From the sequence record NC_135729.1: DNA of 64,000 nucleotides. One strand, written 5' to 3'. Of the stretch, positions 761-46,452 are shown in pieces. This DNA comes from a phage. How positions within the stretch are numbered: position 1 is the stretch's first letter; each line of letters starts with the position of its first letter. The position numbers and the translations under genes were made by a program. Below the pieces are notes generated by a model. It saw only the letters and a program-made list of their open reading frames with translations. It did no database searches and had not been told where the DNA came from.

Positions 761-1093
761 TCAGGCTCCCAGTGTGTTCTTTCCTTTGTACAACCGTAAG
801 GGTATAGTTTTTGTAACAGTCCATCTCCCCAGCCCTTCCCAGTTCCAGTTGTAGGCATGGTACCCGGTTACGCATGCACTGCTAGAGTGGTCATAGGCAT
901 AAGAGAACACTATACGCACCAAATGGAACCAGTCTTTCCACGGTTGTGGTCCGTAAGCTTTTCTCCAACACCGACACAAACTAAATGTCTCAAGAATAGG
1001 CAGGATAACAAATCCATACACCGCCACCAGAATAGCCAGCGCAATGATTGTCAGGAATACATACCCTGCAGTTGAAACGATGATCTCTGTCAT
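761..1093 (-). CDS. hypothetical membrane protein
   Basis: 110-aa ORF; hydrophobic stretch YVFLTIIALAILVAVYGFVILPIL suggests one transmembrane helix; same strand as neighbours. Confidence 0.35.
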   Translation of the reverse strand: MTEIIVSTAGYVFLTIIALAILVAVYGFVILPILETFSLCRCWRKAYGPQPWKDWFHLVRIVFSYAYDHSSSACVTGYHAYNWNWEGLGRWTVTKTIPLRLYKGKNTLGA

Positions 1094-2590: not shown

Positions 2591-3049
2591 TCAACACTTT
2601 TTGTACTCTACTACAACCACATCAATATCTGTGGTTGCAAGATTAATTACATCTTCTACATGTTCCCACTTTAGACCGCCAATACCGCATCCAATTTTAG
2701 GAATGTAGAACGGCAATGACACACCTTTGAATACCTCGTTGACTCGCTCAAAACCTTTCATGATTGAGAAGTATTCAGCATTGGGCCCTGGGTAGAACTG
2801 GGTATACAGGTTGATTCCATATACGACCCTGTTCTTGGCAAAATGCTCCCAACAAGAAAACATACCCAGCTTGTCCAGATTACCATAGGCAGTCTCTTTG
2901 TCGGCTGCCAGTGCTTGAGGGAACTCACGGGCAATATCTTTCGCTATGCCTGCACCCATTGTATGAAAGCAGTTACAACCGTGGATCAGGTGACCAGCAC
3001 CGCTCTTAAAAAGGGAGATTAAATCTCCCGCTACAGTATCAATAATCAC
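2591..3049 (-). CDS. macro-domain protein, TARG1/OARD1-like (putative ADP-ribosyl hydrolase)
   Basis: GDLISLF...HLIHGCNCFHTMGAGIAKDIAREFP and LPFYIPKIGCGIGGLKWEHVEDVI align by eye with the TARG1 signatures GDLFSCP...CRMGAGIA...FKKKFG and LSMPRIGCGLDRLQWENV; length 152 aa fits a single macro fold. Confidence 0.7.
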   Translation of the reverse strand: MIIDTVAGDLISLFKSGAGHLIHGCNCFHTMGAGIAKDIAREFPQALAADKETAYGNLDKLGMFSCWEHFAKNRVVYGINLYTQFYPGPNAEYFSIMKGFERVNEVFKGVSLPFYIPKIGCGIGGLKWEHVEDVINLATTDIDVVVVEYKKC

Positions 3050-3464
3050 GGTATGTCAGCTCCTCTTCCGCAATTTCAAAAAACTCATCCCAACCTTGTG
3101 GCATATTTGAGTTGCCGAAGTGGCTTTCATAGTAAAGGTTCTCACCACTTGGGAGATAGAAATCTGTTACCTCGTAGAATCCACAATCGTCGCACTCGCC
3201 TTCTTCAAACTTGGCCTCAACCTTAATACCTAGGAAGGTGAAAAGTTTATGGATATCTTCAGTTTCGAACTCCCAGCAGATATTGTTTTCCGCATCGGTG
3301 TAGAACTGGATCAGCAGACCATTATCCAGTTTACCAAAATATTCTGTGAAGTAACTACCTTCCCAGAAATCTTTATGACAAATAATATCCATGCGCTTGC
3401 CCATGATAAAGGTGTGGGCGTTTTGGGCATCGTCACGAATCAGTTTTGGCATTTCATAGATCAT
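3039..3464 (-). CDS. hypothetical protein
   Basis: 141-aa ORF overlapping the macro-domain gene start by 11 nt (likely co-translated). Confidence 0.45.
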   Translation of the reverse strand: MIYEMPKLIRDDAQNAHTFIMGKRMDIICHKDFWEGSYFTEYFGKLDNGLLIQFYTDAENNICWEFETEDIHKLFTFLGIKVEAKFEEGECDDCGFYEVTDFYLPSGENLYYESHFGNSNMPQGWDEFFEIAEEELTYRDY

Positions 3465-3532
3465 CTTAGTTCTCCGGGTTCAACAGGTGGTGGTGCTACA
3501 GGAAGATCATAAAACATAGCTATCACAGTCTC

Positions 3533-3730
3533 TTACACAGGAATTGCTTCAAACAGGCCGTTATCTATACCGTCCTTCAGATAGAGATTATACTCTATGT
3601 CGGTATCTGTATAAAGGGCAGCATCCAGCATTCTATCTGTGAGTCCATCCATTGGGTGGAGAAACCACCACCCACGCCAGTCAAAGTAACAGCCTGGTGC
3701 ATCTTCTCTTACACGGATTCGATAAATCAT
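3533..3730 (-). CDS. hypothetical protein
   Basis: 65-aa ORF. Confidence 0.3.
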   Translation of the reverse strand: MIYRIRVREDAPGCYFDWRGWWFLHPMDGLTDRMLDAALYTDTDIEYNLYLKDGIDNGLFEAIPV

Positions 3731-3826
3731 GGGCAGTGGCCTCCTGTTAGTTATACATCCCAGTTTTCTTCGTTCATCGCGTCCTCCCGTTATATGAAGT
3801 TATAATTGCACACCTTTCAACCTGTG

Positions 3827-4243
3827 TCAACAGAAAACTTCAACAAATTCTTCCACAGTTTTAATGTCGTGGGAAAAAGGTTTACGGCTATAACGGGCAA
3901 TAGCACTATCAACCACCGCCCGGTACTCAAGATCTTCAGAGTATTTCATGAAGCATTGTAGTGTTTCTGGACAGATAGCCAGATAGCTCCACCACCCTTC
4001 ATCAGATTGATAGTCAAATCCCATACTCTCCAACCATGAAGCATATACTCCAGCACCCTCAAGCCAGTGAGTATTTTCATCCAGAAACTTGTTAACAGAC
4101 ATGTGAGCTTCTAAGCACTTGTCCAGCTCTTTTCCGTTAACCAGCCACGCACTGACCGTGGCGCATCCAAGGTCTACAGATTGAGTTGACAGGTTGTATT
4201 GGTCATAGTTCTCAGGTTTAACAATGATATCTTCTAATGTCAT
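3827..4243 (-). CDS. hypothetical protein
   Basis: 138-aa ORF. Confidence 0.45.
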   Translation of the reverse strand: MTLEDIIVKPENYDQYNLSTQSVDLGCATVSAWLVNGKELDKCLEAHMSVNKFLDENTHWLEGAGVYASWLESMGFDYQSDEGWWSYLAICPETLQCFMKYSEDLEYRAVVDSAIARYSRKPFSHDIKTVEEFVEVFC

Positions 4244-4305: not shown

Positions 4306-4929
4306 CTAAAAGTATTCGTAGAGGTATCCATCGGGGGCTGGAATTTTTTCATGAATGTAGTAATCAACACATATTCCGGTTTCTCTTCTACAAGAATTGT
4401 GGGATACCCATTCTTTAAGAACGTTTCCATTCATGTCCAGCCTCCTTACATTTTTACACCGTCTACCGCTGGTGCTTCTATGCAACAGAATATCCTCCGT
4501 CTGCTTGTCTTTATTTTCTCCCCAGGTCGTTAAACGGATATTATCAAAAGAGTACCCTTTGAAATCATCTATCCTGTCACAAGAAGGCTTTTTCCTTTTG
4601 TCGTATCCGCTGGCTACCCACTGGTCATACAACTCTTTGTAACCGTTCAGGTATAGCCACTCCTTAAACTCTTTTTTGGTGTAAGTCGGAGGAGGGTGAC
4701 CTCTTTGCTTGCTGTTGCACTTTTGAGCCTTGTACAACACGCGTATTACACCTTTTTCTGAAGAGTCGTGGGAAAACTGGTCAGCCTCCCTGCTGGCCTT
4801 CTTACAACACTCTTTGCACTTATTAAGATGACCGTCAGACATCTTTGGGTGTTTGTAGAACTCGGAGAGGTTTTTCACCTCTCCGCACTTGATGCACCTC
4901 TTACAATGCGTGGATTCTACTTTTGCCAT
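4306..4929 (-). CDS. HNH homing endonuclease (free-standing)
   Basis: zinc-finger-like [10 protein letters not shown]...CKECCK followed by [28 protein letters not shown] (His-Me finger, DRID-type); the track ORF starts at 5016 but an internal Met ([12 protein letters not shown]) at 4929 is more plausible. Confidence 0.65.
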
Positions 4930-17510: not shown

Positions 17511-18877
17511 ACGTCCCCCTCTTCGGCTCTGGTTTCAAAATCTTTCCTGACAATTTTGTCTAAGTCAGGGAATGTTGTATTGTAAAACTCTACGACTCGC
17601 GGGTCAACAATAATGTCAACTTCTCTTAGTGGACGCAACAAGTTTATTCCTTGTATTGTCTTAACTCTACTCAAAGCGACATACGTCATTCCAGGAGAGA
17701 AAGCTCCGTTCTTTCCAAGATCTAGGTTGTAGCAATCTAACGTAAGTCCTTGACTTTTATGAGATGTTACGGCGTACCCAGATTTCAGAGGGAGTTGCTT
17801 GTATGACCCGATCACTACCCTCTCTATAAACTTCTCCATCTTCCTTTCTGCAATGTTGTATCTCTGAGATGGCTTATACTCGTTATTTTCCCACAACCTC
17901 TGCTCTATGTCAACCTGTGTTCCATCTTCAAGCTCTACCACCACCGCCTTGTTCTTAAATTTAACAATTGTGGCACGTGTTCCGTTAACATAATAAGGTA
18001 CTTTGTGCGTCGGGTCAACATCGTTGGCGGTTATCATAACTTTCATGCCAATTTTCAACTTCATCTCCTGCTCAACTGGCAGGGTGGAGGGAAACTTACC
18101 CTTCATTTCACCAGTGTATACCTTCTCTGGGGCGTTGATGGCATCATAGAACCTTCTGTTCACTTCCTCTGCTTGTTTGTTGGTAGCGCAAATTGTGAGA
18201 GCGTCTGTTGGTACACCGCCTTTGTAACAGCGAGCATTAAGTTCTGCTACAACCTCTTTTATGCGACGACCCTCACGAACACAGTTGAGCATTGTGGCAA
18301 ATCGAATAGACTCCTGTCGGAACTGGTCTATTAGGGCTATGTTGTGAAGGTCCAGCTCTTTCCAAGATTCGGTATAGCAACATAGGTCTGTGTGGTAGAA
18401 GTTGAAGTAGGCCTCCTTCTCCATAGAAGAGACAACAGGAGGTGCCTGGTAAAAATCGCCAAACAATATGACCTGTATGCCTCCGAAAGGTTTGTCATTT
18501 TTTCGAAGGAAGCGGAGTTTCCTATCCATCTCTATAAACTTATCAGCACGGATCATAGAGATTTCATCGATAATTAGGATGGTAAATGCCTTGCTTTTCA
18601 AAGGCTTTGCTGTTTTTGCCCTTATTGCAGTCCAGTCAGACTCCATGCTCACACCTGCTGCAAGATCGAAGGTTCGGTGTGCTGTTGCTCCATTAACGTT
18701 TAAAGCGGCTACCCCTGTCGGGGCAACCGTTATGCAAGAGTCTCCATACATTGACTGGATCATGTTGATGAGGTACGTCTTCCCACAACCTGCGGGTCCT
18801 GAAACGAAGACATTCTCCCCACTCATGATTGCAACAAGGGCAGCATCTGTGCCTACATCATACTGCCCTTTTTCCAT
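17507..18877 (-). CDS. SF1B helicase, Dda/RecD/Pif1-like
   Basis: Walker A VFVSGPAGCGKT; Ia ITVAPTGVAA; Walker B LIIDEISMI; III ILFGDFYQAPPV; V YAVTSHKSQGLTLD; VI ALSRVKT. Confidence 0.85.
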   Translation of the reverse strand: MEKGQYDVGTDAALVAIMSGENVFVSGPAGCGKTYLINMIQSMYGDSCITVAPTGVAALNVNGATAHRTFDLAAGVSMESDWTAIRAKTAKPLKSKAFTILIIDEISMIRADKFIEMDRKLRFLRKNDKPFGGIQVILFGDFYQAPPVVSSMEKEAYFNFYHTDLCCYTESWKELDLHNIALIDQFRQESIRFATMLNCVREGRRIKEVVAELNARCYKGGVPTDALTICATNKQAEEVNRRFYDAINAPEKVYTGEMKGKFPSTLPVEQEMKLKIGMKVMITANDVDPTHKVPYYVNGTRATIVKFKNKAVVVELEDGTQVDIEQRLWENNEYKPSQRYNIAERKMEKFIERVVIGSYKQLPLKSGYAVTSHKSQGLTLDCYNLDLGKNGAFSPGMTYVALSRVKTIQGINLLRPLREVDIIVDPRVVEFYNTTFPDLDKIVRKDFETRAEEGDV

Positions 18878-20082
18878 TACGCCTCCTCGTAAAGAATGTC
18901 GATAGTGTTACCGTCTCGGTCAACCACGTATTCAATCGGGTCTCCGTCCTTGCGTGCTTCCGGAGCTACCACAATCTCATAGCGGCATGCACGGCACTTA
19001 GCGCTATTGTGTTGGTATGGCACACTAACCACATCTGCAGGGTCAACCATGACAGTCATTACAGTGCCGTAGCTCTTTGCATACTCCTTGCTGGCGCAGT
19101 GTAAGCCATAGGAGCACGCAGCTTCAGGATCATCCTCTACAAAGTTACGAGGCATGGATACAAAAGCACCCTGGTATTGTGGAACTTTACCACTGTGCCA
19201 ATCCACCCACTTGCTGCCGTTAAACTGAACCCCTTTGTAGCAAATGATTCGACCATCTTCTGCAATCTGGATATCGTTGGCCTGCATAAAATCGTAGAGC
19301 ATGTTTACAGATTTTGCAGAAGGATTGCGTAGCAGGCGAACGAGGAATTTCACATAGCGGTCATCCAGGGTTCCGTCTGCATAGTCTTTCTCAATTTTCT
19401 TTGCAATGGTGGATCGCATCTCTACACCGTAGTAGTAGAGCTTACCATCTTTCATGATCAGGTTGTCTGCAAGTGTGGTGAACTCATTCTTGCGTTCCAG
19501 CCAGACAAGGATTTCACCAATTGCCTCATCATATTCCTGAACAGAGATATGGTCGAAGACTTTCTGGTAAACTTCCTCACTTTCGCTGCGGCGAATTTCA
19601 AAAATGCCTTCGTTGCAGGTGATCTGGAGGAGTTCCCCACAAATAACTACTAAAGGCTCGATGCTTCGAGTCTGTTGCTGAGACACACTGCTAACCACCT
19701 CCAGCACCGGGTCTTTGACTTCTACTAAAGGTTCTTCTGACTTGATTGCCACCCCAGTGAACCCCACACCGTGAACAACACACAGTGGGTATACCACGCC
19801 CCAACGTTTAACGGAACCTTCGCCTAAGTCTAAGATCATGGCGTACTTACCATTATCTTCCAGCCCATATCGAAATAGACGAGCCTCTTCACGGGTTTCA
19901 AAATCCTCACGGGTGTAGCAGACGCTGTCACGGTCAGGATCGAACAATTCTGGGGCACCCACTGCCAGTGTCCAGGTTGTGTCACCTTTCTCAATGGCAC
20001 ATGTGAAACCCTTCTTCTCAAGTTCTGCACGGCGGTCTCGTGCTTCTTTACGAGTTTTGAAATGTTCGTAGATGAAAATCAT
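18877..20082 (-). CDS. putative rIIB-like protein (by position next to rIIA-like gene)
   Basis: 401-aa ORF immediately downstream of the GHKL ATPase; no motif recognised, assignment by synteny only. Confidence 0.3.
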   Translation of the reverse strand: MIFIYEHFKTRKEARDRRAELEKKGFTCAIEKGDTTWTLAVGAPELFDPDRDSVCYTREDFETREEARLFRYGLEDNGKYAMILDLGEGSVKRWGVVYPLCVVHGVGFTGVAIKSEEPLVEVKDPVLEVVSSVSQQQTRSIEPLVVICGELLQITCNEGIFEIRRSESEEVYQKVFDHISVQEYDEAIGEILVWLERKNEFTTLADNLIMKDGKLYYYGVEMRSTIAKKIEKDYADGTLDDRYVKFLVRLLRNPSAKSVNMLYDFMQANDIQIAEDGRIICYKGVQFNGSKWVDWHSGKVPQYQGAFVSMPRNFVEDDPEAACSYGLHCASKEYAKSYGTVMTVMVDPADVVSVPYQHNSAKCRACRYEIVVAPEARKDGDPIEYVVDRDGNTIDILYEEA

Positions 20083-20092
20083 AGCGGTCTCC

Positions 20093-22075
20093 TTATTTGG
20101 TGTTATTCTTTGTGTCGATCAGTTCACGGTATTCAATCATAGCAGGAGTGTCCCAATATTTCAAGCCTACATGCTTCAAAAGTGGGTATTTCTTTTCCAA
20201 TCTTGCAATATAGGCCTTCCCGCATTTAACTCGGTTGGCGATTAAGATTTTGGCACGATGATTTAGCTCACTGTGCTTCCACGTGGTGTTACCTTCCCAC
20301 TTGTGGAAATGTGGCCGATAATTTCCAAAATCTTGCATGGGAATAATTTTCCCTAATTGTCTATACAGGCTGTCATAAGAAGTCTCATTTGCTGCACGGG
20401 TCAGTAAGAATTTCCAAGCATCCTCTTTCAACAGGTGCTCCACATTCTTCTCTGTAACATACTGGCAATCAGGATCAGTCCAAAGCAGACGAGATTCAGA
20501 TACCAGATACAGATCTTCACCTTCAGGAATCTGAAGTGCCGCACGCACACGGTCATAATCTTGCTGGTAGATGTTACTCATCTGCCCCAGCCAACAACTT
20601 CCACGTTGGATATCACCCTCATAAGGGATGCAGTGTTTAATCTTCCGGAACTCTGCCTTAGTAATACGCTCACGGCGGAAGTAACCATCCTTCTCAAGTT
20701 TTTTAACCCAATAGCCCGGCTCATAACGAGTTTTTGTTTCACCTTTCTTGACAGGTCGGCGAGGGAGCTCTGATAACAATTTGACCGTATCTGCAAAGAA
20801 CGGGTGGTGTGCCGCTTCTTTAAACTCTTCCACCAGATCCGTGTTACGGCAATAGAAAACGTTGCGTCCGGTGATCTCGCTTAAGTAGTTACACTTATTC
20901 CGGTTATATTTGCCGTCTCCGTCGTTAAATACAAGGTATACACCTCGTAAGAACTCCGACTTTCCGTAACGAGCATAGCCTATGCGGCCTTTATTTAAGC
21001 CGCCAGCGAAAATTTCACAATCGCCTAAGTCGCCAAGCCCTGTTTCTTCCCAACGGTTCCACATAAAGTTCTTGCCGAAGATGTGTCCGAACACTCCACT
21101 ATTCTTCATCATTTCACGTGCTTCTGCGGAGGTTTTTGCCGTCTCCAGTTCTGCAACAACTTCTGCCCCGCGAAGACGTATACCTTCTTTGACAAATGCC
21201 TCCAGGCGATCCTGGAATCCACCGTCGTCATGGCCCTCTATGGTCCATTCACGCCCAGGGTTAATATTGCAATCCCCAATAGGAATTTCCACGCAGATTG
21301 CAGGGTAATCGGTCAATGTCTCCAGGAACTTGGAGCGGTAAGGTTGGTGACCCATCACAACACGGCTCTCATCAGAACTGGTATAACCTTTCAGGATGGT
21401 CATTTTCCAGCCATCCTTCTCGTAATGATACTGTGCCTCAACCTTGTCACCTTCTAACATCTTACTGGTCATGGGATCGGTGACGATGAACGGAAACTTC
21501 GCATAGCGTAAGCACGATGCAATAGCAGTGCGATATTTCAGGACATGCTCTTTCTTAACATGGAACTGAACTTTTACCCCGTTGTGCTCTTCAGTCTTCC
21601 GCTCGCGGATCTTGGTAACGTTTGGGATACCCTGATCCAAGAACAATAGATATGTGCTTTCAATACCATTGTGCACACTGATAACATCGAAAGTGTCCAC
21701 CATGCTGAACGGAGCCTTTGAACCAACACCTTTATTGCCAACCAGAGCGTTGCTGTTGCGCTTGGTTGACTCACCGAGGTTCATGAAAGTGTTGCGGACC
21801 ATCTCTTCTGACATGCCCAATCCAACGTCCTGCACAAAGAAGTATGGTTCAAGGTCTGTAGGAGAGTGAATAATGATCGGCACATCACCCCGTCCAGACT
21901 CAACATGAGAGTCCACAGCATTGAAGATTGGTTCACGGCAGCTTGCCAGCACCTTATCTTCGTAAATCCCTTTAATGATTAGCCCAAAAGTCTCTTTGTT
22001 AAGAGAAATTGAGCCCCTGGTGACCTCCATATTTCCGGTTAGCACTGCTTTAGTTTCATTACTGTTTACAATCAT
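20093..22075 (-). CDS. rIIA: rIIA-like protein with N-terminal GHKL (HATPase_c) ATPase domain
   Basis: Bergerat-fold boxes: N-box REPIFNAVDS, G1 DVGLGMS, G2 GNKGVGSKAPF; 660 aa, comparable to T4 rIIA. Confidence 0.55.
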   Translation of the reverse strand: MIVNSNETKAVLTGNMEVTRGSISLNKETFGLIIKGIYEDKVLASCREPIFNAVDSHVESGRGDVPIIIHSPTDLEPYFFVQDVGLGMSEEMVRNTFMNLGESTKRNSNALVGNKGVGSKAPFSMVDTFDVISVHNGIESTYLLFLDQGIPNVTKIRERKTEEHNGVKVQFHVKKEHVLKYRTAIASCLRYAKFPFIVTDPMTSKMLEGDKVEAQYHYEKDGWKMTILKGYTSSDESRVVMGHQPYRSKFLETLTDYPAICVEIPIGDCNINPGREWTIEGHDDGGFQDRLEAFVKEGIRLRGAEVVAELETAKTSAEAREMMKNSGVFGHIFGKNFMWNRWEETGLGDLGDCEIFAGGLNKGRIGYARYGKSEFLRGVYLVFNDGDGKYNRNKCNYLSEITGRNVFYCRNTDLVEEFKEAAHHPFFADTVKLLSELPRRPVKKGETKTRYEPGYWVKKLEKDGYFRRERITKAEFRKIKHCIPYEGDIQRGSCWLGQMSNIYQQDYDRVRAALQIPEGEDLYLVSESRLLWTDPDCQYVTEKNVEHLLKEDAWKFLLTRAANETSYDSLYRQLGKIIPMQDFGNYRPHFHKWEGNTTWKHSELNHRAKILIANRVKCGKAYIARLEKKYPLLKHVGLKYWDTPAMIEYRELIDTKNNTK

Positions 22076-22572
22076 TTATTGCGCTCCTTGTAGTAGATAT
22101 GACTCCCGAATTGAGCTGTCCTCTGCATCTTTTTTGCCCATTTCGGTCGTACTTTGGTTGTATGGTAGTGTGTTGCTCCACCTGTTATGTCCATAGCCAT
22201 GTATGCAACATGGTTGTTATTATAGACCTTTAGAAGCATCTTTGCAAGACTTTTAGCGTGATCCCATGAATCTTTTTCTGTCACCTTAAAAGTTTTGCCG
22301 TGGTTTGTCCACGAAAACTGGTTAGGTTGGTAGACAATCTTTCTTATAGTGTCTGGGTATTTGGGGTGAGATTTCCTGTTTAGTGTGGCAAACCCTGATG
22401 CCAGCATACCCATCGTGCCATCCCCTCTAGCCTCCCTGTAGATATTGCATGCCAGAATGTTTTCCTTAGTATCTGAGGGCTTGCAAGTATGATATACTTT
22501 TTGTTTTGGTGCTGCAACAACAGGCAGCGATAAAAATGCGCTCAAAATAATAGCAAAGATCTTAATTTTCAC
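22072..22572 (-). CDS. secreted cell-wall hydrolase, SleB/Hydrolase_2 family (candidate lysin)
   Basis: signal peptide MKIKIFAIILSAFLSLPVVAAP; family signature CNIYREARGDG...ATLNRKSHPKYPDTIRKIVYQPNQFSW. Confidence 0.75.
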   Translation of the reverse strand: MKIKIFAIILSAFLSLPVVAAPKQKVYHTCKPSDTKENILACNIYREARGDGTMGMLASGFATLNRKSHPKYPDTIRKIVYQPNQFSWTNHGKTFKVTEKDSWDHAKSLAKMLLKVYNNNHVAYMAMDITGGATHYHTTKVRPKWAKKMQRTAQFGSHIYYKERNK

Positions 22573-22582
22573 AATAACTCCA

Positions 22583-22610
22583 AATAGAAAATCCCCGCCG
22601 AAGCGGGGGA
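22583..22610 (-). terminator. rho-independent terminator
   Basis: minus-strand CCCCGC-TTCG-GCGGGG hairpin followed by ATTTTCTATTT; same hairpin at 48721-48736. Confidence 0.65.
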
Positions 22611-23011: not shown

Positions 23012-24196
23012 TTAAGCTTTAGCTAAAATGGCGCTAAACTCTTCACCAAACTCTTTTACAATCTTCATCAGGTTTGGGTACGCTTTGATCAGTTGAGCAA
23101 CGATCTTGTCACGCCCTTTACCGATAAGCAAGGCATTTCCTAAGGCGTTAGGTTTCATCATCGCCATAAAGACTGAGAATACAAAATCTCGGTTCTCGTC
23201 CTTGAAATTTTCCCAAAGGAAATCGAGGAAGTTTGCCACACAGCTAACAAGATCTTCGTCAGAGATACTTGCATTTTCCATCATATTACGAATAGCGATA
23301 CAACCTTCAGACCCAAGAATCCACAAGATGTCTGGCTGCTTAGGCCCTACGTATTCTTTGCAACCCCCTGCCATAATCCGACCGATTTCCGGTAAATTGC
23401 GTTTCTTGGTGTGGTAGGTCCAGATCTCTACCGCTGCAGTGTGACCAATAGCACCTTGCAGAAGAACACGGGCCATAGCGTCAGAAATAATACCGCTGTC
23501 AAAATCGTGCAGGATATCAGATGCAGCAACCCAAGATCGCGGTGTGGCAAAAGATGGGCAATTAATCTCAGCCATAGCCTCATAATTATCAATAGCTGAC
23601 GGAACTCTTTTCAGATACCCAATTACAGAGGAGTGCACTCCATTAAGGAATGCGTAGTCCTCAATAAACACCTCTGCATTGCTTGTAACTTCTACAATGA
23701 TAAAACGGTTAGCCAGAGGGGCTTCAAGCGCCGAAAGAACCGCACCATCTGTAGAACGGTTACCTGCAGCTACAAAAACAGAGCCCTTAGGGAATGCATA
23801 GGTGCCGCACTTGTGGTCGAGCATAATTTGCATTGCAACCTTTTGCAGGTAACTATCTGCATGAGTAAGCTCATCCAGAAATATAATTCCGCTCCAGTCC
23901 GGATCTGCAGGCCAGAATTCTGGAATTGCAAACACTGTACGTGCAGTTCCATCCGCTTCTACAGGGATAGGTAGCCCAGATAAGTCGGCAGGATCTTTAT
24001 CTGACAGTCGCACGTCAACCAGGTTGTCATCTCGCTCACCGAACATATTATCGGCGATCTGCTTCATCACCTGGCTCTTCCCCACGCCCATTGGTCCTAA
24101 AATCAGGACAGATCGGTTATGACGTTGGGCAAACTGAATGATAGCTGGCAACTCACGGACAGTGATTTGACCACTTTCAAATACGTTTCTTGACAT
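23012..24196 (-). CDS. AAA+ ATPase, MoxR-like (AAA_5)
   Basis: Walker A LILGPMGVGKSQ; Walker B IIFLDELTHA; sensor-1-like VFVAAGN; LANRFIIVEV. Confidence 0.75.
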   Translation of the reverse strand: MSRNVFESGQITVRELPAIIQFAQRHNRSVLILGPMGVGKSQVMKQIADNMFGERDDNLVDVRLSDKDPADLSGLPIPVEADGTARTVFAIPEFWPADPDWSGIIFLDELTHADSYLQKVAMQIMLDHKCGTYAFPKGSVFVAAGNRSTDGAVLSALEAPLANRFIIVEVTSNAEVFIEDYAFLNGVHSSVIGYLKRVPSAIDNYEAMAEINCPSFATPRSWVAASDILHDFDSGIISDAMARVLLQGAIGHTAAVEIWTYHTKKRNLPEIGRIMAGGCKEYVGPKQPDILWILGSEGCIAIRNMMENASISDEDLVSCVANFLDFLWENFKDENRDFVFSVFMAMMKPNALGNALLIGKGRDKIVAQLIKAYPNLMKIVKEFGEEFSAILAKA

Positions 24197-24504
24197 TAGT
24201 AAAAGTCCTCTACTTGTGTGTAAGTGTTTTCAAAGTTTTCCAAAACAGATGCCACATCGGATCTGTCAATATCGTACACAACTTCCCAGTTGTATGCAAC
24301 CCTTTCTGCTGTTGCTTCTTCAGGACTTAGCCGTCTACTGGGGTGAAAGAATGTTGGGGTACACCTTCTTAGTTGTCTTCCGGTTTTCCCATAACAATAT
24401 CTGTGGATAACTTTGTCAAAATTTAACTCTTTTTCTGCACAAAGTTCGTGTTTCTGGTATAACATGTTTATTACTCTTCTAAGCGGCATCCCTGCCACCA
24501 CCAC
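24196..24504 (-). CDS. hypothetical protein
   Basis: 102-aa ORF. Confidence 0.35.
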   Translation of the reverse strand: MVVAGMPLRRVINMLYQKHELCAEKELNFDKVIHRYCYGKTGRQLRRCTPTFFHPSRRLSPEEATAERVAYNWEVVYDIDRSDVASVLENFENTYTQVEDFY

Positions 24505-26728: not shown

Positions 26729-26757
26729 ACTATATCGGAGATTTAGAGTAAAGTCAA
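26729..26757 (-). promoter_or_regulatory. sigma70-like promoter (leftward)
   Basis: minus strand TTGACT (plus 26752-26757) - 17 nt - TATAGT (plus 26729-26734). Confidence 0.45.
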
Positions 26758-40990: not shown

Positions 40991-41257
40991 TTAAGCTTTT
41001 TGCTCTTCGTTTTTAACGTGGTCAGGGTGCTGGCAACCCCACCGGAGCGAGATGAATTTGCTAATAAGCTGGGGGCAAGCTACTGAAGGCGCGTATATCC
41101 ACGCATACCATTCAGGAAGCGTATCATTATACCCCATATGAATAAACACCCCAGTCATCACCGCCATGCCTATGTTCGACCATAGCTTAGATTGGGACAC
41201 TTTCGTAGGGTCATCAGATGCCGCAACCAGTCCCCATAAAAACTGAGTTAGTTTCAT
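40991..41257 (-). CDS. small membrane protein (holin-like candidate)
   Basis: 88 aa with hydrophobic segments (FLWGLVAAS, GMAVMTGVFIHMG). Confidence 0.3.
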   Translation of the reverse strand: MKLTQFLWGLVAASDDPTKVSQSKLWSNIGMAVMTGVFIHMGYNDTLPEWYAWIYAPSVACPQLISKFISLRWGCQHPDHVKNEEQKA

Positions 41258-41268
41258 TTACCCTCTTT

Positions 41269-42315
41269 TTAAGCATAAGATATAGTGATCCATTGACCAT
41301 TTACAAGTTTTTGGATAGCACCTGTCCAGTAATCACCTTGATAAGGGTGTTTATAAGCGTAGTTACCAGAGCACATCACATGTCCAGGGTAGACTCTTGA
41401 CTCTCTATAGGTGGTTTTGAAACGGTTTGCTATCCTTACATCATCAACCCCTCTGCTGGGCATAGGGATAGTAAGGTTACCACTAACGTCTGCGCTGTTA
41501 CCATTTACCCTGCGGACAACGTTTCTTCCACCAACTGTTGCATATTGTCCCCTGACGGTTTCATCGTTACAATCAACTCTTCCACCTATTTGGGCGCTTC
41601 CACAGGATTGTTGTCCATTAACAGTGGCTCTTGGTATCGTGACCGCATTGGCATTTGCAGAGGAACTTTTTGCATCGTTGCATTCAAGATTTCCTTGGAT
41701 AGCCAGTCTTGCACGGTTGGCAGTTATAGCATTGAGCTTCATAGCCGAAAACACAGGATGCCCACCAGAAGGTTGAAATCTCCAACGGAACCCGTCTATT
41801 TGGTGAGAAGGATCATCAAGGTCTGTGCCGTCAGCACCACCGATGTTGTCCATAATCCAGAAGTCCATCGTCGTCTTGTCTGGAGTTATGGTGGTATATA
41901 TTGCCGCATTGTCTGTTGACGCAGATGCAAACTCGATTCTTTGAAGGCCTAAAGTTTGAGTCTGAGTCATTATGTCTCCAGACTTGTCAACATACAGATC
42001 GTCCATTTCTTCAGGCGAGTATACATTGAGAACTTGACGTGCAGCAGCTTTGTCTGGAACGTCTGCTAGATTATTAGTGACCCTTAAGAATCTATTATCC
42101 CATCCTGGGACAACATCTTCTGTTAAATGCTTTAACCACGCAGAAAGCATGTGAAGTTCAAAGTTAACAACTTCACATGCCACTCTTTGTGTCATATCCC
42201 AACCTTTCAATCTCTCTTCTTTTTTTGGTTGAGACTTATTCAACTCTCCCGTATTTTCAAGCACAACATCCTGATTGGCCCAAATATCAAGAGGGATAAC
42301 TGGTTTAGTCATCAC
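41269..42315 (-). CDS. tail fibre protein (paralog A)
   Basis: N-terminus PLDIWANQDVVL; C-terminus GAIQKLVNGQWITISYA; paralogous to 43327-44367. Confidence 0.55.
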   Translation of the reverse strand: MMTKPVIPLDIWANQDVVLENTGELNKSQPKKEERLKGWDMTQRVACEVVNFELHMLSAWLKHLTEDVVPGWDNRFLRVTNNLADVPDKAAARQVLNVYSPEEMDDLYVDKSGDIMTQTQTLGLQRIEFASASTDNAAIYTTITPDKTTMDFWIMDNIGGADGTDLDDPSHQIDGFRWRFQPSGGHPVFSAMKLNAITANRARLAIQGNLECNDAKSSSANANAVTIPRATVNGQQSCGSAQIGGRVDCNDETVRGQYATVGGRNVVRRVNGNSADVSGNLTIPMPSRGVDDVRIANRFKTTYRESRVYPGHVMCSGNYAYKHPYQGDYWTGAIQKLVNGQWITISYA

Positions 42316-42360
42316 GTTCTCCTGAGAAAATTCCTTAGGACTATTTTAACACTTTAGGGA

Positions 42361-42393
42361 ACAAAATGCAAGAACGGAGTCCTTTCCGTTCTG
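42361..42393 (-). terminator. rho-independent terminator
   Basis: hairpin AGAACGGA/TCCGTTCT (42371-42392) followed on the minus strand by ATTTTGTTCCC. Confidence 0.5.
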
Positions 42394-42401
42394 ACCTTTG
42401 T

Positions 42402-42716
42402 TTACCTTTTACTATGCTCTACGAGCATGTGCAAAATCTTTTGTACATCGGCTCTGATGCCGGAGACATCTGTCCTGACATCCTGCTTAAGGTCGTTAAT
42501 ATCGGCCTCTAGCTTGCTTAACCGGGTCTCTATAACGGAATCAAGTTTATCTTTTGTAACCATACTGTTTTTCACTAAGATGAGGTCTTTCTCCAGCTCA
42601 TCCAACCTCTTGGAAATGCCTTTCCATTTGGTGTGCCACTGGTTGAAAGCCCATACACAGATCGGGACAACGGTACCCATGCAGATACCGTACAATGCCG
42701 CCAAATCCAACTCCAC
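42402..42716 (-). CDS. membrane-anchored coiled-coil protein
   Basis: N-terminal TM-like LAALYGICMGTVVPICVWAF followed by a heptad-like charged segment. Confidence 0.35.
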   Translation of the reverse strand: MELDLAALYGICMGTVVPICVWAFNQWHTKWKGISKRLDELEKDLILVKNSMVTKDKLDSVIETRLSKLEADINDLKQDVRTDVSGIRADVQKILHMLVEHSKR

Positions 42717-44379: not shown

Positions 44380-46452
44380 TTATGAGAAGTCTGGCGGGAC
44401 AACATCCTCTACATACCCTTTCAGAGCAACCTGCCCCATATGAAGCACGGTAGAATCTCTAGCGGTAACAGTGATGCTGTCAGACATTACTTGCGGGTAT
44501 GCCCACACATACTGTTTTACCTCAGGGTATCTATACTCTATAGTTGCCATGTTTCCGCAAATACATCTCCATAAAAATTCTTGGTAATTCCTGGTTGGGT
44601 CGTAGCCATATACCGGAGCAAGCTCTTTACTAGGAACGAACCCTGCAAGGTATTGTATTTCAGACGGTTGCCAACCTAACTTAACGATAGGTATGTTTAC
44701 AGACTCTTTTGCCTTTTCAATACCTCCCTGCATCACCCAATCGTAGCACTCGGTGCAGAAGAAATCAAGAGCACCTGCTTCCTTTTTATATTGGTCAGCA
44801 AGGTTCAGCTTTTGCGTAAGCTCGGTTTCCATGATGGTTGGGAAAAACAGCAAAGCTGTCATCTGAGCTGATGCAGCGTGTGCCTTTATTGCCTTTGAAA
44901 TAGCCGCAATACGAGCGCCAAGCTTACCACGACAAAATGCTACATACTTGTCGTAAACACCGCCAGTTTTAGGATCGTCAATAGTCCCAATATCTAATGC
45001 ATACTCACCTGTCTCATCATAAAACGCCTGCTTTGTAGGGTAATCATAAATACAAGGTCTACGAGTATCGGTATTGTACCACCACCACGGTTCACCAACC
45101 TGCATAATCACTGGCAGGTTGTTTCTCATAGCGGCTGATGCAAAATTCTTAAATACTGCAGTAAGGAAATTCATACCCTCTTCAATGGTTGGAGACAGGA
45201 GGTAGCTACAGGGTGTATACCCTGTTTTAGCGTAGTTATCGTTCCAGTCTCTTTGGGTCCATTCCAACGGGCAGGCATCGCTGAAAAGCTCAAAACTTAC
45301 AGATTGCATAACGTCGAAGTTATGTCGTTTGGCATTGTACATAAAATCATCATGCCATTTATAAGCTGCAGCGTTTAGCGCCCCTGTTCTGTTTATAGAC
45401 CATTGGGTTCCTGACCATGTGTAGTCATAATAATGACTCATACCAACATAATGGTTTATGGTTCCGGTATAGCCCAGACGCTTGATATTGTTCAACACCC
45501 TTAAAGGAGATACGTTCCACATATCGTCATATGCGGTGCAGATCCCAACGTCGTGCTCTTTAACCTGAATATTGTTAAGTTGCATCATTTTCCAGCCTGT
45601 GTCTGGCTGAAGCAGATCTAGGCGCAACTCACACTCTACATTTTCCGTTCTCGGGTCTGTGCTATTACTTACCCAGTCTTTAGGCATGAGTGGTATTAAA
45701 ATCCTTCTCACCTGCCGAGGATCAACACCCATCATGTTGTTGTTCTGGTCCATCCCGACGCAGTCCTCAAAATCAATATGAATTTCTGCAACATTCTTAT
45801 CCTCTGAGATGCTGACAGCATATTGAGCTAAAGGAACATAGATGATTGTGCCATCAACAAGGTCTACAGTCATAATCATCTTTTCAGGAGTGGAGAAGTT
45901 GCTGGCGTTGGTTATTGACATTCTGAACCAGAGCTTGGTGTTTCTCATCTCATAGTGATCATCAAACCCAATGCCGAAATGGTCATACTTGTCAACTGTT
46001 TCCCAAATACACCCAGCCATACCTCCATATGTTCTTGACACTAAACGGTTAATACAACAGTTGTTATCTGCAACAATACAGGTACTTTCAGTCTGCTGAG
46101 TAGTTGTAACCCAATACCTTGGGTGAAACATTCTCTCCTCAACAGTATCCCAAGATATCCTGTCAAGATTCTCATCTGAAACTATTGTACATTTCGCCCT
46201 TTGTGTTCCAATCATTACCCCTTGGGATTTTGATGAAAACTCCATAAAGAAGCTTCTTGGCAACCTGTTGGGTAATTTGTCAACAATTTCCACGGGGATC
46301 TCAATACTTGTTGCCCCAACTGGGATAGTTATATCGCCCTCAACATGATTATAATCCCTACCAGGAACGGCAGTATCCTGAACTGTTCGGTAATGAAACT
46401 GTGCAGCCATTGTAGAGTAATCACGGTAAGGTTTAAAAACAGCTGTTGCCAT
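44380..46452 (-). CDS. structural (baseplate/tail-associated) protein
   Basis: 690 aa; N-terminal Calx-beta-like segment (AVPGRDYNHVEGDITIPVGATSIEIPVEIVD); no catalytic motif recognised. Confidence 0.35.
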   Translation of the reverse strand: MATAVFKPYRDYSTMAAQFHYRTVQDTAVPGRDYNHVEGDITIPVGATSIEIPVEIVDKLPNRLPRSFFMEFSSKSQGVMIGTQRAKCTIVSDENLDRISWDTVEERMFHPRYWVTTTQQTESTCIVADNNCCINRLVSRTYGGMAGCIWETVDKYDHFGIGFDDHYEMRNTKLWFRMSITNASNFSTPEKMIMTVDLVDGTIIYVPLAQYAVSISEDKNVAEIHIDFEDCVGMDQNNNMMGVDPRQVRRILIPLMPKDWVSNSTDPRTENVECELRLDLLQPDTGWKMMQLNNIQVKEHDVGICTAYDDMWNVSPLRVLNNIKRLGYTGTINHYVGMSHYYDYTWSGTQWSINRTGALNAAAYKWHDDFMYNAKRHNFDVMQSVSFELFSDACPLEWTQRDWNDNYAKTGYTPCSYLLSPTIEEGMNFLTAVFKNFASAAMRNNLPVIMQVGEPWWWYNTDTRRPCIYDYPTKQAFYDETGEYALDIGTIDDPKTGGVYDKYVAFCRGKLGARIAAISKAIKAHAASAQMTALLFFPTIMETELTQKLNLADQYKKEAGALDFFCTECYDWVMQGGIEKAKESVNIPIVKLGWQPSEIQYLAGFVPSKELAPVYGYDPTRNYQEFLWRCICGNMATIEYRYPEVKQYVWAYPQVMSDSITVTARDSTVLHMGQVALKGYVEDVVPPDFS

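Follow-up and report, generated by a model that had tools for sequence, protein, structure and literature searches.

Results

The gene and its surroundings

The stretch analysed here (the window; 64,000 nucleotides, sequence record NC_135729.1) comes from a Vequintavirus, that is, an rV5-like E. coli myophage, whose closest relative is phage D1 (98% nucleotide identity). It contains a genuine gene for a SleB-type cell-wall hydrolase that is predicted to be exported (Table 1). A sequence-only reading had placed an open reading frame with a SleB-like Hydrolase_2 signature between an rIIA-like gene and an ATPase operon, and our analysis recovered the same frame at exactly the same coordinates, with the rIIA homologue downstream and a MoxR-type ATPase gene upstream. 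The immediate neighbours are rIIA and a gene for a 126-aa acidic protein.

Table 1. Features at and around the SleB-like gene (window coordinates)
Feature	Position	Strand	Remarks
rIIB homologue	18877..20082	-	co-directional, after rIIA; helicase next
rIIA homologue	20093..22075	-	directly downstream of the SleB-like gene; PHROG 612, E=3.5e-124
ATGA overlap	22072..22075	-	TGA stop of the SleB-like gene, ATG start of rIIA
SleB-like pre-protein gene	22072..22572	-	166 aa; GTG start 22572-22570, TGA stop 22074-22072
Hydrolase_2 (SleB/CwlJ) catalytic domain	22090..22422	-	Pfam envelope, residues 51-161
Glu47 codon	22432..22434	-	GAG, minus strand; the Glu is present in all 76 aligned homologues
Predicted Sec (SPase I) signal peptide	22513..22572	-	residues 1-20; n-region MKIK, h-region IFAIILSAFLSL, c-region PVVA with a -3/-1 V-x-A site; predicted cut before A21
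Shine-Dalgarno GGAG	22578..22581	-	5 nt upstream of the GTG start
Intrinsic-terminator-like element	22582..22608	-	hairpin CCCCGC-TTCG-GCGGGG (22608..22593), then ATTTTCTATTT; placed after the stop codon of the upstream 126-aa gene, ahead of the SleB-like RBS
MoxR-type ATPase	23012..24196		upstream of the SleB-like gene
Sigma70-like promoter	26757..26729		head of the transcription unit of the SleB-like gene

The ATGA overlap implies that translation of the SleB-like gene is coupled to that of rIIA. The gene is part of the replication-gene transcription unit, and the published description of rV5 includes the corresponding gene 2 in the transcription unit 10-1-238-164. Hairpins followed by T-runs also lie upstream of the homologous genes of 4MG, CR9 and PAK_P1; overall, GTG or TTG start codons were seen in four genera and upstream terminators in four. 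In Stephanstirmvirinae, consensus-like sigma70 promoters directly precede the homologues. A literature search for a transcriptome of any rV5-like phage found none, and the timing of expression was therefore judged from promoter and terminator patterns only.

Domain, fold and active site

The protein matches Pfam Hydrolase_2 (PF07486) with E=2.1e-19 and 70.4 bits (cut-off 27) over profile positions 2-100 of 100, and PHROG 938, labelled 'endolysin', with E=1.7e-27. The catalytic domains of Bacillus SleB (PDB 4F55 and 4FET) were also retrieved by sequence (E=2.5e-6). Homologues were collected by an exhaustive HMMER search in place of a word-indexed search, which gave 10 proteins. AF2 prediction from the single sequence was unusable (pLDDT 47), and we took instead the model built on a 76-sequence alignment (pLDDT 95.9). 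Foldseek searches with this model returned SleB chains as the only significant matches (4FET/4F55; E<=4e-5, probability 1.00, TM 0.72-0.79). Conservation and fold reach beyond the Pfam envelope, to about residues 28-165.

Glu47 aligns with the conserved glutamate in the Bacillus SleB motif YGESRGE, and both E47 and R66 are invariant in the 76 sequences. Ten further positions (Y45, R49, G55, N65, Q85, F86, S87, W145, H158 and Y161) are conserved in at least 90% of them, all ten being present in the phage protein, as is the family core motif Y-x-E-x-R-G ... N-R ... Q-F-S. Given that the catalytic Glu and the core motifs are fully conserved, the protein is probably an active enzyme, the simplest effect of which would be to weaken the wall.

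The catalytic domain of Bacillus SleB, a germination-specific lytic transglycosylase, shares the fold (TM 0.79, rmsd 2.7 A over 128 columns) and the Glu-containing motif with the phage protein at only 21-24% identity. Bacillus SleB carries a peptidoglycan-binding domain at its N-terminus, and its substrate is the spore cortex, which contains muramic-delta-lactam. In contrast, only one Pfam domain was found in the phage protein, whose predicted N-terminal signal peptide leads straight into the catalytic domain, and the wall of its host is free of muramic-delta-lactam. The protein belongs to the superfamily, but its single domain rules out that it is an orthologue of the spore cortex-lytic enzyme SleB.

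Export signal

The Sec-type signal peptide proposed by the sequence-only reading is borne out as a prediction: the N-terminus has classical n-, h- and c-regions and, by a heuristic, carries every sequence hallmark of a Sec signal, including the V-x-A|A site. By this crude heuristic, the protein ranked first of three matches among the 74 window ORFs of at least 120 aa, and the remaining two were weak-scoring ORFs that we judged to be non-coding. A hydrophobic N-terminus is found in 142 of 160 homologues, and 99 of the 160 pass the strict signal-peptide heuristic. Most of the 76 aligned sequences contain one of two strict and mutually exclusive cysteine pairs, (30,42) or (39,77), and about four have no cysteine or a single one; this paired pattern is typical of exported proteins and supports export of the SleB-like protein. 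A lipoprotein reading was rejected because no cysteine lies close to the predicted cut.

We infer that the signal peptide is cleaved. Published surveys treat predicted signal peptides of Gram-negative phage lysins as SAR export, and the protein might accordingly be a SAR endolysin, in which an uncleaved N-terminus holds the inactive enzyme at the inner membrane, to be freed on depolarisation by a pinholin. Its 18 uncharged residues between K4 and K23 would be barely enough for a membrane span, and the N-terminal TMD of the homologue in PAK_P1 lacks an obvious cleavage site. SAR domains, such as those of P1 Lyz and R21, are rich in Gly, Ala, Ser and Thr, whereas these residues account for just 33% of the segment, which has a strong h-region (KD 2.9). 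The Pro-x-V-V-A|A motif suits SPase I, homologues from T5, 4MG, CR9 and Stephanstirmvirinae have short h-regions with terminal AxA-type sites, and neither a pinholin nor another small TMD gene adjoins the gene. By these sequence features the protein does not resemble a SAR endolysin, and we regard this reading as very unlikely.

Lysis genes in the window and in relatives

The SleB-like gene had been described as the only recognisable lysin candidate in the window, with no holin or spanin next to it, and both statements hold. Hydrophobic stretches adjoining the gene occur only in antisense ORFs that look non-coding, and no clustered holin-endolysin-spanin cassette is present at this locus. In the collinear region of slur16, RefSeq annotates no further lysin; a Pfam search of 10 tail and baseplate proteins gave no muralytic domain; and tblastn queries with T4 lysozyme, the spanins and the rV5-type endolysin had no match in the window. 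The region 40991-42716, where a holin had been suspected, holds two small membrane-protein genes, at 40991-41257 and 42402-42716, which belong to the late tail-fibre module. Both are conserved throughout Vequintavirinae and called holin in no record.

The main lysis genes of rV5-like phages lie elsewhere. D1, LL12, slur16 and rV5 all have a cytoplasmic, signal-less, lambda-R-like endolysin (rV5 Gp89, LL12 gp90) together with Rz/Rz1 spanins (gp65/66 in LL12). In close relatives, including D1, the endolysin gene is about 68 kb from the SleB-like gene and the spanin genes are beside terL, both outside the window; in slur16, the endolysin (104705-105175) and spanins (93959-94641) map 26.8 kb and 16 kb beyond the window end. 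LysECP26, 98% identical to the relatives' endolysin, has been purified, was muralytic in vitro and lysed 29/29 Gram-negative strains. The published rV5 description regards Gp89 as 'an obvious lysin' and gp129 as a putative holin; this candidate has 75-78 aa and two TMDs in relatives and likewise lies outside the window. The holin of rV5-like phages is unlinked and putative. These relatives lend no support to the proposal that the SleB-like protein is the endolysin of the phage and imposes an unusual lysis timing. A canonical endolysin/holin cassette elsewhere in the genome had been named as the finding that would overturn this proposal, and the relatives largely bear it out: they possess endolysin, spanins and a holin candidate, but the genes are scattered over tens of kb and the holin is unproven.

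Gp89-type endolysins are encoded in 79 phage records at >=95% identity and in about 91 at >=80%. The SleB-like protein is present at >=95% identity in about 115 GenBank records, more than the roughly 91 with a Gp89-type endolysin (>=80%), a surplus that counts against an accessory role of the SleB-like protein; several records are partial assemblies. Since the Gp89-type lysozyme gene is likewise situated in the early/replication region, the two enzymes cannot be told apart by their genome position.

Homologues in other phages

The product of gene 2 in the rV5 group (LL12 gp002, AXC42680; slur16 gp061, YP_009177451) has an identical amino-acid sequence, and the gene shares the GTG start, the upstream terminator and the ATGA overlap with rIIA. 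The 1-9 nucleotide changes are synonymous (9/9 for LL12), leaving nothing of substance different. Records of Vequintavirus label this product inconsistently as hypothetical protein, (SleB) cell wall hydrolase or endolysin. The gene is already known and widely annotated in rV5-like coliphages, and its presence here adds very little that is new.

Proteins of Certrevirus and Seunavirus (CB7_83, CR3_087, CR9_095 and 4MG_270) are 49-51% identical and are alike in having a signal peptide, a single Hydrolase_2 domain, a location in the replication module and a helicase nearby. The literature on the Certrevirus homologue has already covered the signal peptide, conservation across Vequintavirinae and toxicity on expression, the toxicity of CB7_83 in E. 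coli being reported as data not shown. In 4MG and CB7, the gene is followed by a holin-like ORF of 57-65 aa with two TMDs, in place of the rIIA and rIIB found here; the CR9 copy of this ORF appears frameshifted. A kinship of the 4MG/CR9 ORF with the rV5 gp129-type candidate was rejected (BLASTP E=4.3).

The 'cell wall hydrolase SleB' of T5-like phages (AKFV33 ORF81; T5_ev219 VUF55313) is about 40% identical over the domain. Its Sec signal peptide is clear (MKAALLLVAALTFSFSSQA|SH), and it is encoded in the early-gene region of phages that also possess a separate lysozyme-holin pair; it differs in its cysteine pair of the 39,77 type, its ATG start and the absence of rII neighbours. SleB-like genes were found in the early/replication module of every lineage examined. 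The gene that follows them is a helicase in CR9, the small TMD ORF in 4MG and glycosyltransferases in Stephanstirmvirinae; rIIA follows in Vequintavirus only, and a general functional link between SleB-like and rII genes was rejected for this reason.

Discussion

We favour, at a probability of roughly 0.55, the interpretation that the SleB-like protein is an accessory murein hydrolase with a SleB/CwlJ domain, produced at low dose and exported by Sec with a cleavable signal, while the main endolysin is encoded elsewhere. An accessory role is probable because an ordinary endolysin and spanins are encoded at other loci in relatives. SecYEG would take the pre-protein to the periplasm with no need for a holin, and signal peptidase would cleave it after Ala20. 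The mature enzyme of 146 aa would be basic (pI about 10), might contain a C30-C42 disulfide, and would cut the glycan strands of murein, probably, as SleB does, by lytic transglycosylation. The terminator just upstream, the GTG start and the coupling to rIIA may together keep the dose of a toxic periplasmic enzyme deliberately low. During infection the hydrolase could then weaken or remodel the sacculus, and it may help in final lysis, which would depend on the cytoplasmic lambda-R-like lysozyme (Gp89/LysECP26), Rz/Rz1 and the unlinked putative holin, all outside the window.

As proposed for the SleB-like protein, Lys44 of Oenococcus phage fOg44 and the SAR endolysins P1 Lyz and R21 reach the wall independently of a holin by means of an N-terminal export signal. 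Each is the sole endolysin of its phage, and their catalytic folds differ from that of SleB. Like Lys44, the SleB-like protein could be a true lysis endolysin that is secreted early by Sec and stays inactive until a holin collapses the membrane potential, leaving Gp89 redundant or secondary. The union of a predicted signal peptide with a muralytic domain would suit this role, and so would the lack of any proven holin in rV5-like phages. Two further points in its favour count against an accessory function at the same time: PHROGs (PHROG 938) and many GenBank records name the family 'endolysin', and the two-TMD ORF directly downstream of the Seunavirus and Certrevirus genes, one of them reportedly toxic in E. 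coli, resembles the partner in a pair of secreted lysin and holin, which would fit a genuine role in lysis. However, unlike Lys44, P1 Lyz and R21, the SleB-like protein coexists in relatives with a canonical cytoplasmic endolysin that is biochemically active and accompanied by spanins; this holds for all relatives examined, and T5-like phages with their own hol-lys pair keep a SleB-like gene with a signal peptide as well. No holin-like gene adjoins the gene, and a tblastn search with the 4MG/CR9 two-TMD ORF, covering stretches of LL12 and about 90% of slur16, detected no homologue. The gene is also embedded in a replication unit behind a terminator and has a weak start codon. In D1, LL12, slur16 and rV5 the protein would not be the sole endolysin, and here it has no adjacent holin partner; we consider a lysis endolysin of this type unlikely. 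The 'endolysin' labels on the gene (RefSeq, PHROG 938) are probably misleading, since rV5-like phages possess a separate, biochemically confirmed endolysin.

The protein could alternatively be exported for a purpose that contributes nothing to lysis, such as local, rIIA/rIIB-linked murein remodelling, superinfection exclusion or muropeptide release. Translational coupling to rIIA, the sigma70-type promoters directly upstream of the Stephanstirmvirinae homologues and the fact that all lineages examined have the gene in the early/replication module agree with such a role. So does its occurrence beside canonical endolysins, both in T5-like phages and in PVP-SE1 and BME3, the last two being described in the BME3 paper as having 'two endolysins'. 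The paper on UAE_MI-01 was set aside, this phage not being rV5-like. Adjacency to rIIA is confined to Vequintavirus, however, and full conservation of the catalytic Glu and core motifs makes weakening of the wall the simplest effect, so a purely non-lytic function appears distinctly improbable.

SleB-like hydrolases with signal peptides occur in Vequintavirinae, Stephanstirmvirinae, T5-like Demerecviridae and Pakpunavirus, several of them unrelated lineages of large virulent phages of Gram-negative bacteria, and a canonical endolysin accompanies the hydrolase in the two groups checked, Vequintavirus and T5-like phages. Very tentatively, these proteins may form a distinct class of periplasmic enzymes, made at early or middle times and independent of a holin, that perhaps pre-condition or remodel the sacculus rather than carry out lysis, and that are coupled here, physically and translationally, to the envelope-associated rIIA/rIIB. 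It is a modest question what use large lytic phages of several families have for a dose-restricted, exported SleB-type enzyme, encoded in their early modules, when they possess a normal lysis system as well.

A SleB-type hydrolase with a predicted signal peptide

The SleB-like gene has a GGAG Shine-Dalgarno sequence five bases before its GTG, and its stop shares an ATGA overlap with the ATG of the next gene. The Hydrolase_2 domain, which the sequence-only reading had assigned together with a Sec signal peptide, is secure: it is borne out by Pfam (PF07486, 'Cell Wall Hydrolase', SleB/CwlJ family; whole profile, E=2.1e-19), by PHROG 938 (labelled endolysin; E=1.7e-27), by sequence matches to Bacillus SleB catalytic domains in the PDB (E=2.5e-6) and by the modelled fold. 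A single-sequence AlphaFold model was useless, and we used one built from a 76-sequence alignment (pLDDT 95.9), whose only significant PDB neighbours are SleB 4FET/4F55 (TM 0.72-0.79, normalised to target). Glu47, which aligns with the Glu of the SleB motif YGESRGE, and Arg66 are present and invariant in the 76 aligned homologues, and the protein also has all ten further positions that are at least 90% conserved.

The predicted signal comprises a basic n-region, a 12-residue h-region, a helix-breaking Pro and a V-x-A site (MKIK, IFAIILSAFLSL and PVVA, with cleavage before APK). Among the 74 window ORFs of at least 120 aa, a crude SPase I heuristic gave three hits, of which this was the top-scoring; the other two scored weakly and were judged non-coding. 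Strongly hydrophobic N-termini occur in 142 of 160 retrieved homologues, and 99 of the 160 pass the strict heuristic. Cysteines of the mature part follow two mutually exclusive, strictly paired patterns, (30,42) or (39,77), apart from a few of the 76 sequences with both pairs and about four with none or one. Such strict pairing is a disulfide signature and therefore indicates an extracytoplasmic protein. Predicted export is well supported. The AxA-type site and the low Gly/Ala/Ser/Thr share of the N-terminal segment (33%) suggest signal-peptide cleavage rather than signal-anchor release, and we consider a SAR endolysin the least probable of the readings weighed.

Features of the window and of related phages
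Feature	Sequence	Position	Strand	Remark
SleB-like gene	window	22072..22572	-	intact 166-aa ORF, GTG start, TGA stop
sigma70-like promoter	window	26757..26729	-	head of unit
Intrinsic-terminator-like hairpin	window	22608..22582	-	CCCCGC-TTCG-GCGGGG + T-run; between 126-aa acidic protein and SleB-like genes
Upstream hairpin + T-run	L006	about 3950-3990		relative's stretch
Upstream hairpin + T-run	L009 (CR9)	about 3880-3915		relative's stretch
Upstream hairpin + T-run	L005	about 3780-3815		relative's stretch
MoxR-type AAA+ ATPase and small partner	window	23012-24504	-	partner labelled 'ATPase'
VWA-domain protein	L008 (ALITA)	2790-3584
88-aa gene	window	40991..41257	-	PHROG 1322 'membrane protein'; real gene
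104-aa gene	window	42402..42716	-	N-terminal TMD + coiled coil, PHROG 5345; real gene
110-aa protein	window	761-1093	-	PHROG 2531
690-aa protein	window	44380-46452	-	tail module
Endolysin gp90	LL12	71587-72057
Endolysin	slur16	104705-105175		26.8 kb past window end
Spanins	slur16	93959-94641		16 kb past window end
gp129 homologue	slur16	127594-127821		outside window
68-aa ORF	slur16 (L010 41339-41545)	105239-105445		outside window
Two-TMD ORF	L009 (CR9)	4450-4640		unannotated

Lysis genes in relatives

Collinearity with the rV5-like phages LL12 and slur16 (window position = LL12 position + 20092 = slur16 position - 13915) allowed us to look beyond the window. LL12 gp90 is a 156-aa lambda-R-like endolysin without a signal, and the i/o-spanins gp66/gp65 adjoin terL; D1, the nearest relative, encodes all three proteins (endolysin 98% identical, both spanins 97%). 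The relatives' endolysin and spanins and T4 lysozyme, used as queries, found no match in the window. In rV5, Gp89 has been called 'an obvious lysin', and the unlinked, 78-aa, two-TMD gp129 was proposed as holin (PMC3606486). The same endolysin from another rV5-like phage, LysECP26, lysed 29/29 Gram-negative strains when purified (PMC9728275). The SleB-like protein had been singled out as the only lysin candidate of the window, and nothing else lysin-like was found there; as the phage's lysin it is challenged by the canonical endolysin located elsewhere in every relative examined. The original observation (gene, domain and signal) is thereby retained, its interpretation only in part. A principal secreted endolysin resembling Lys44 appears doubtful.

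The relatives have no lysis cassette: endolysin, spanins and the gp129-type holin candidate, a variable protein (55-100% identity) confined to Vequintavirus, are scattered. Directly downstream of the Gp89-type endolysin, a 68-aa ORF, 100% conserved in D1, has a signal-peptide/lipoprotein-like N-terminus (MKDFLLAILFMAACLACG...); it is possibly a lysis-associated or exclusion lipoprotein, unannotated as such.

A holin had also been suggested at 40991-42716. The 88-aa and 104-aa genes are interleaved with tail-fibre and tail-fibre-assembly genes, a late-operon site like that of the T4 t gene next to gene 38. Both are found throughout Vequintavirinae (368 and 223 records, none labelled holin), the former also in Stephanstirmvirinae, and occur together as PVP-SE1 gp43/gp44, adjoining a fibre-assembly gene. 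In this group, which has no proven holin, the two may be holin/antiholin candidates, and nothing favours them over the gp129-type candidate.

Two other window proteins may be mentioned. The 110-aa protein of the early/replication region is an uncharacterised membrane protein that is hydrophobic over a long stretch at its N-terminus. The 690-aa protein matches the Pfam 'Non-contractile tail sheath protein' TIM-barrel (E=4e-80) and N-terminal domain (E=1e-12), a family name unexpected in a contractile-tailed phage, and has a weak, sub-threshold Calx-beta match.

Transcription unit and expression

The gene belongs to the minus-strand unit 10-1-238-164 defined by the rV5 authors (PMC3606486). Its promoter is followed by a fucosyltransferase-like gene, several small genes, the MoxR-type ATPase and the 126-aa acidic protein, and, beyond the terminator, by the SleB-like gene, rIIA, rIIB, helicase, methyltransferase and DNA polymerase. 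The terminator-to-RBS gap is too short for a promoter, and transcription of the SleB-like gene, rIIA and rIIB therefore depends on read-through. Hairpins with T-runs also directly precede the homologues in 4MG (Seunavirus), CR9 (Certrevirus) and PAK_P1, making four phage genera, and GTG/TTG starts are shared with 4MG, anhysbys and ALITA; two Stephanstirmvirinae have a near-consensus sigma70 promoter (TTGCAA-17-TATACT or TACAAT) directly upstream. The terminators and start codons look like a conserved means of keeping down the dose of a toxic exported enzyme, and with the promoter they suggest early/middle, dose-limited expression by host polymerase, which would fit a toxic periplasmic enzyme, not a late endolysin burst. 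A literature search found no transcriptome of rV5-like phages.

The MoxR-type gene and its partner lie two genes upstream of the SleB-like gene, and the homologue in ALITA (Stephanstirmvirinae) has a gene for a VWA-domain protein a few genes upstream. Proteins of the MoxR and VWA types commonly act in pairs.

Distribution and probable function

More than 100 Vequintavirus genomes, from rV5-like E. coli myophages, match the window region at 97-98% DNA identity. LL12 gp002 and slur16 gp061 have exactly the same amino-acid sequence as the SleB-like protein; the LL12 gene differs at nine nucleotides, always synonymously. Proteins at least 95% identical are present in about 115 phage records, under the names 'SleB cell wall hydrolase', 'endolysin' or 'hypothetical'. 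The paper on the Certrevirus CB7 places SleB-like homologues in every genus of Vequintavirinae, and reports for CB7_83 a signal peptide and toxicity on expression in E. coli (data not shown; PMC7344957). The BME3 paper mentions 'two endolysins' in such phages, PVP-SE1 included (PMC12210895). Since database records and these two papers describe the gene, it and its salient features are already known.

GenBank has about 16-23 MG0656xx records under the name 'Campylobacter phage', with C. jejuni as host, that match E. coli rV5-like phages at 97-98% identity, and their host label is probably wrong; D1 (MG065646.1), the one record opened, is flagged UNVERIFIED and placed in Vequintavirus by NCBI.

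The whole family is very large (11,334 representative clusters at E<=1e-3), and T5-like phages, Seunavirus, Certrevirus, Stephanstirmvirinae and Pakpunavirus have members that begin with a signal peptide or TMD. Adjacency to rIIA is specific to Vequintavirus, whereas CR9 has a helicase, and Stephanstirmvirinae have glycosyltransferases and primase/helicase, in the place of rIIA. The paper on the T5-like AKFV33 assigns the SleB gene to the early region, apart from the lysozyme-holin pair (PMC3326045), and, Pakpunavirus aside, no lineage examined has the gene described as its sole murein hydrolase. A non-lytic envelope function is unlikely. A 57-65-aa two-TMD ORF next after the SleB-like gene in 4MG and CB7 favours a lysis role. 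A search of Vequintavirus stretches yielded no homologue of the 4MG/CR9 two-TMD ORF. In Cronobacter phage CR9, the ORF right after the SleB-like gene would encode an about 62-aa two-TMD, holin-like protein if a G-run frameshift is corrected, which is probably the reason for the published statement that CR9, as an exception, lacks a CB7_82-like gene.

We favour, at a probability of roughly 0.55, a periplasmic murein hydrolase, probably a lytic transglycosylase, which would be made at low dose from the replication-gene unit, exported by Sec, cleaved and stabilised by a disulfide, and would act as an accessory to the conventional, scattered endolysin/spanin/holin system. Several large virulent phage lineages keep a SleB-like enzyme beside a normal endolysin.
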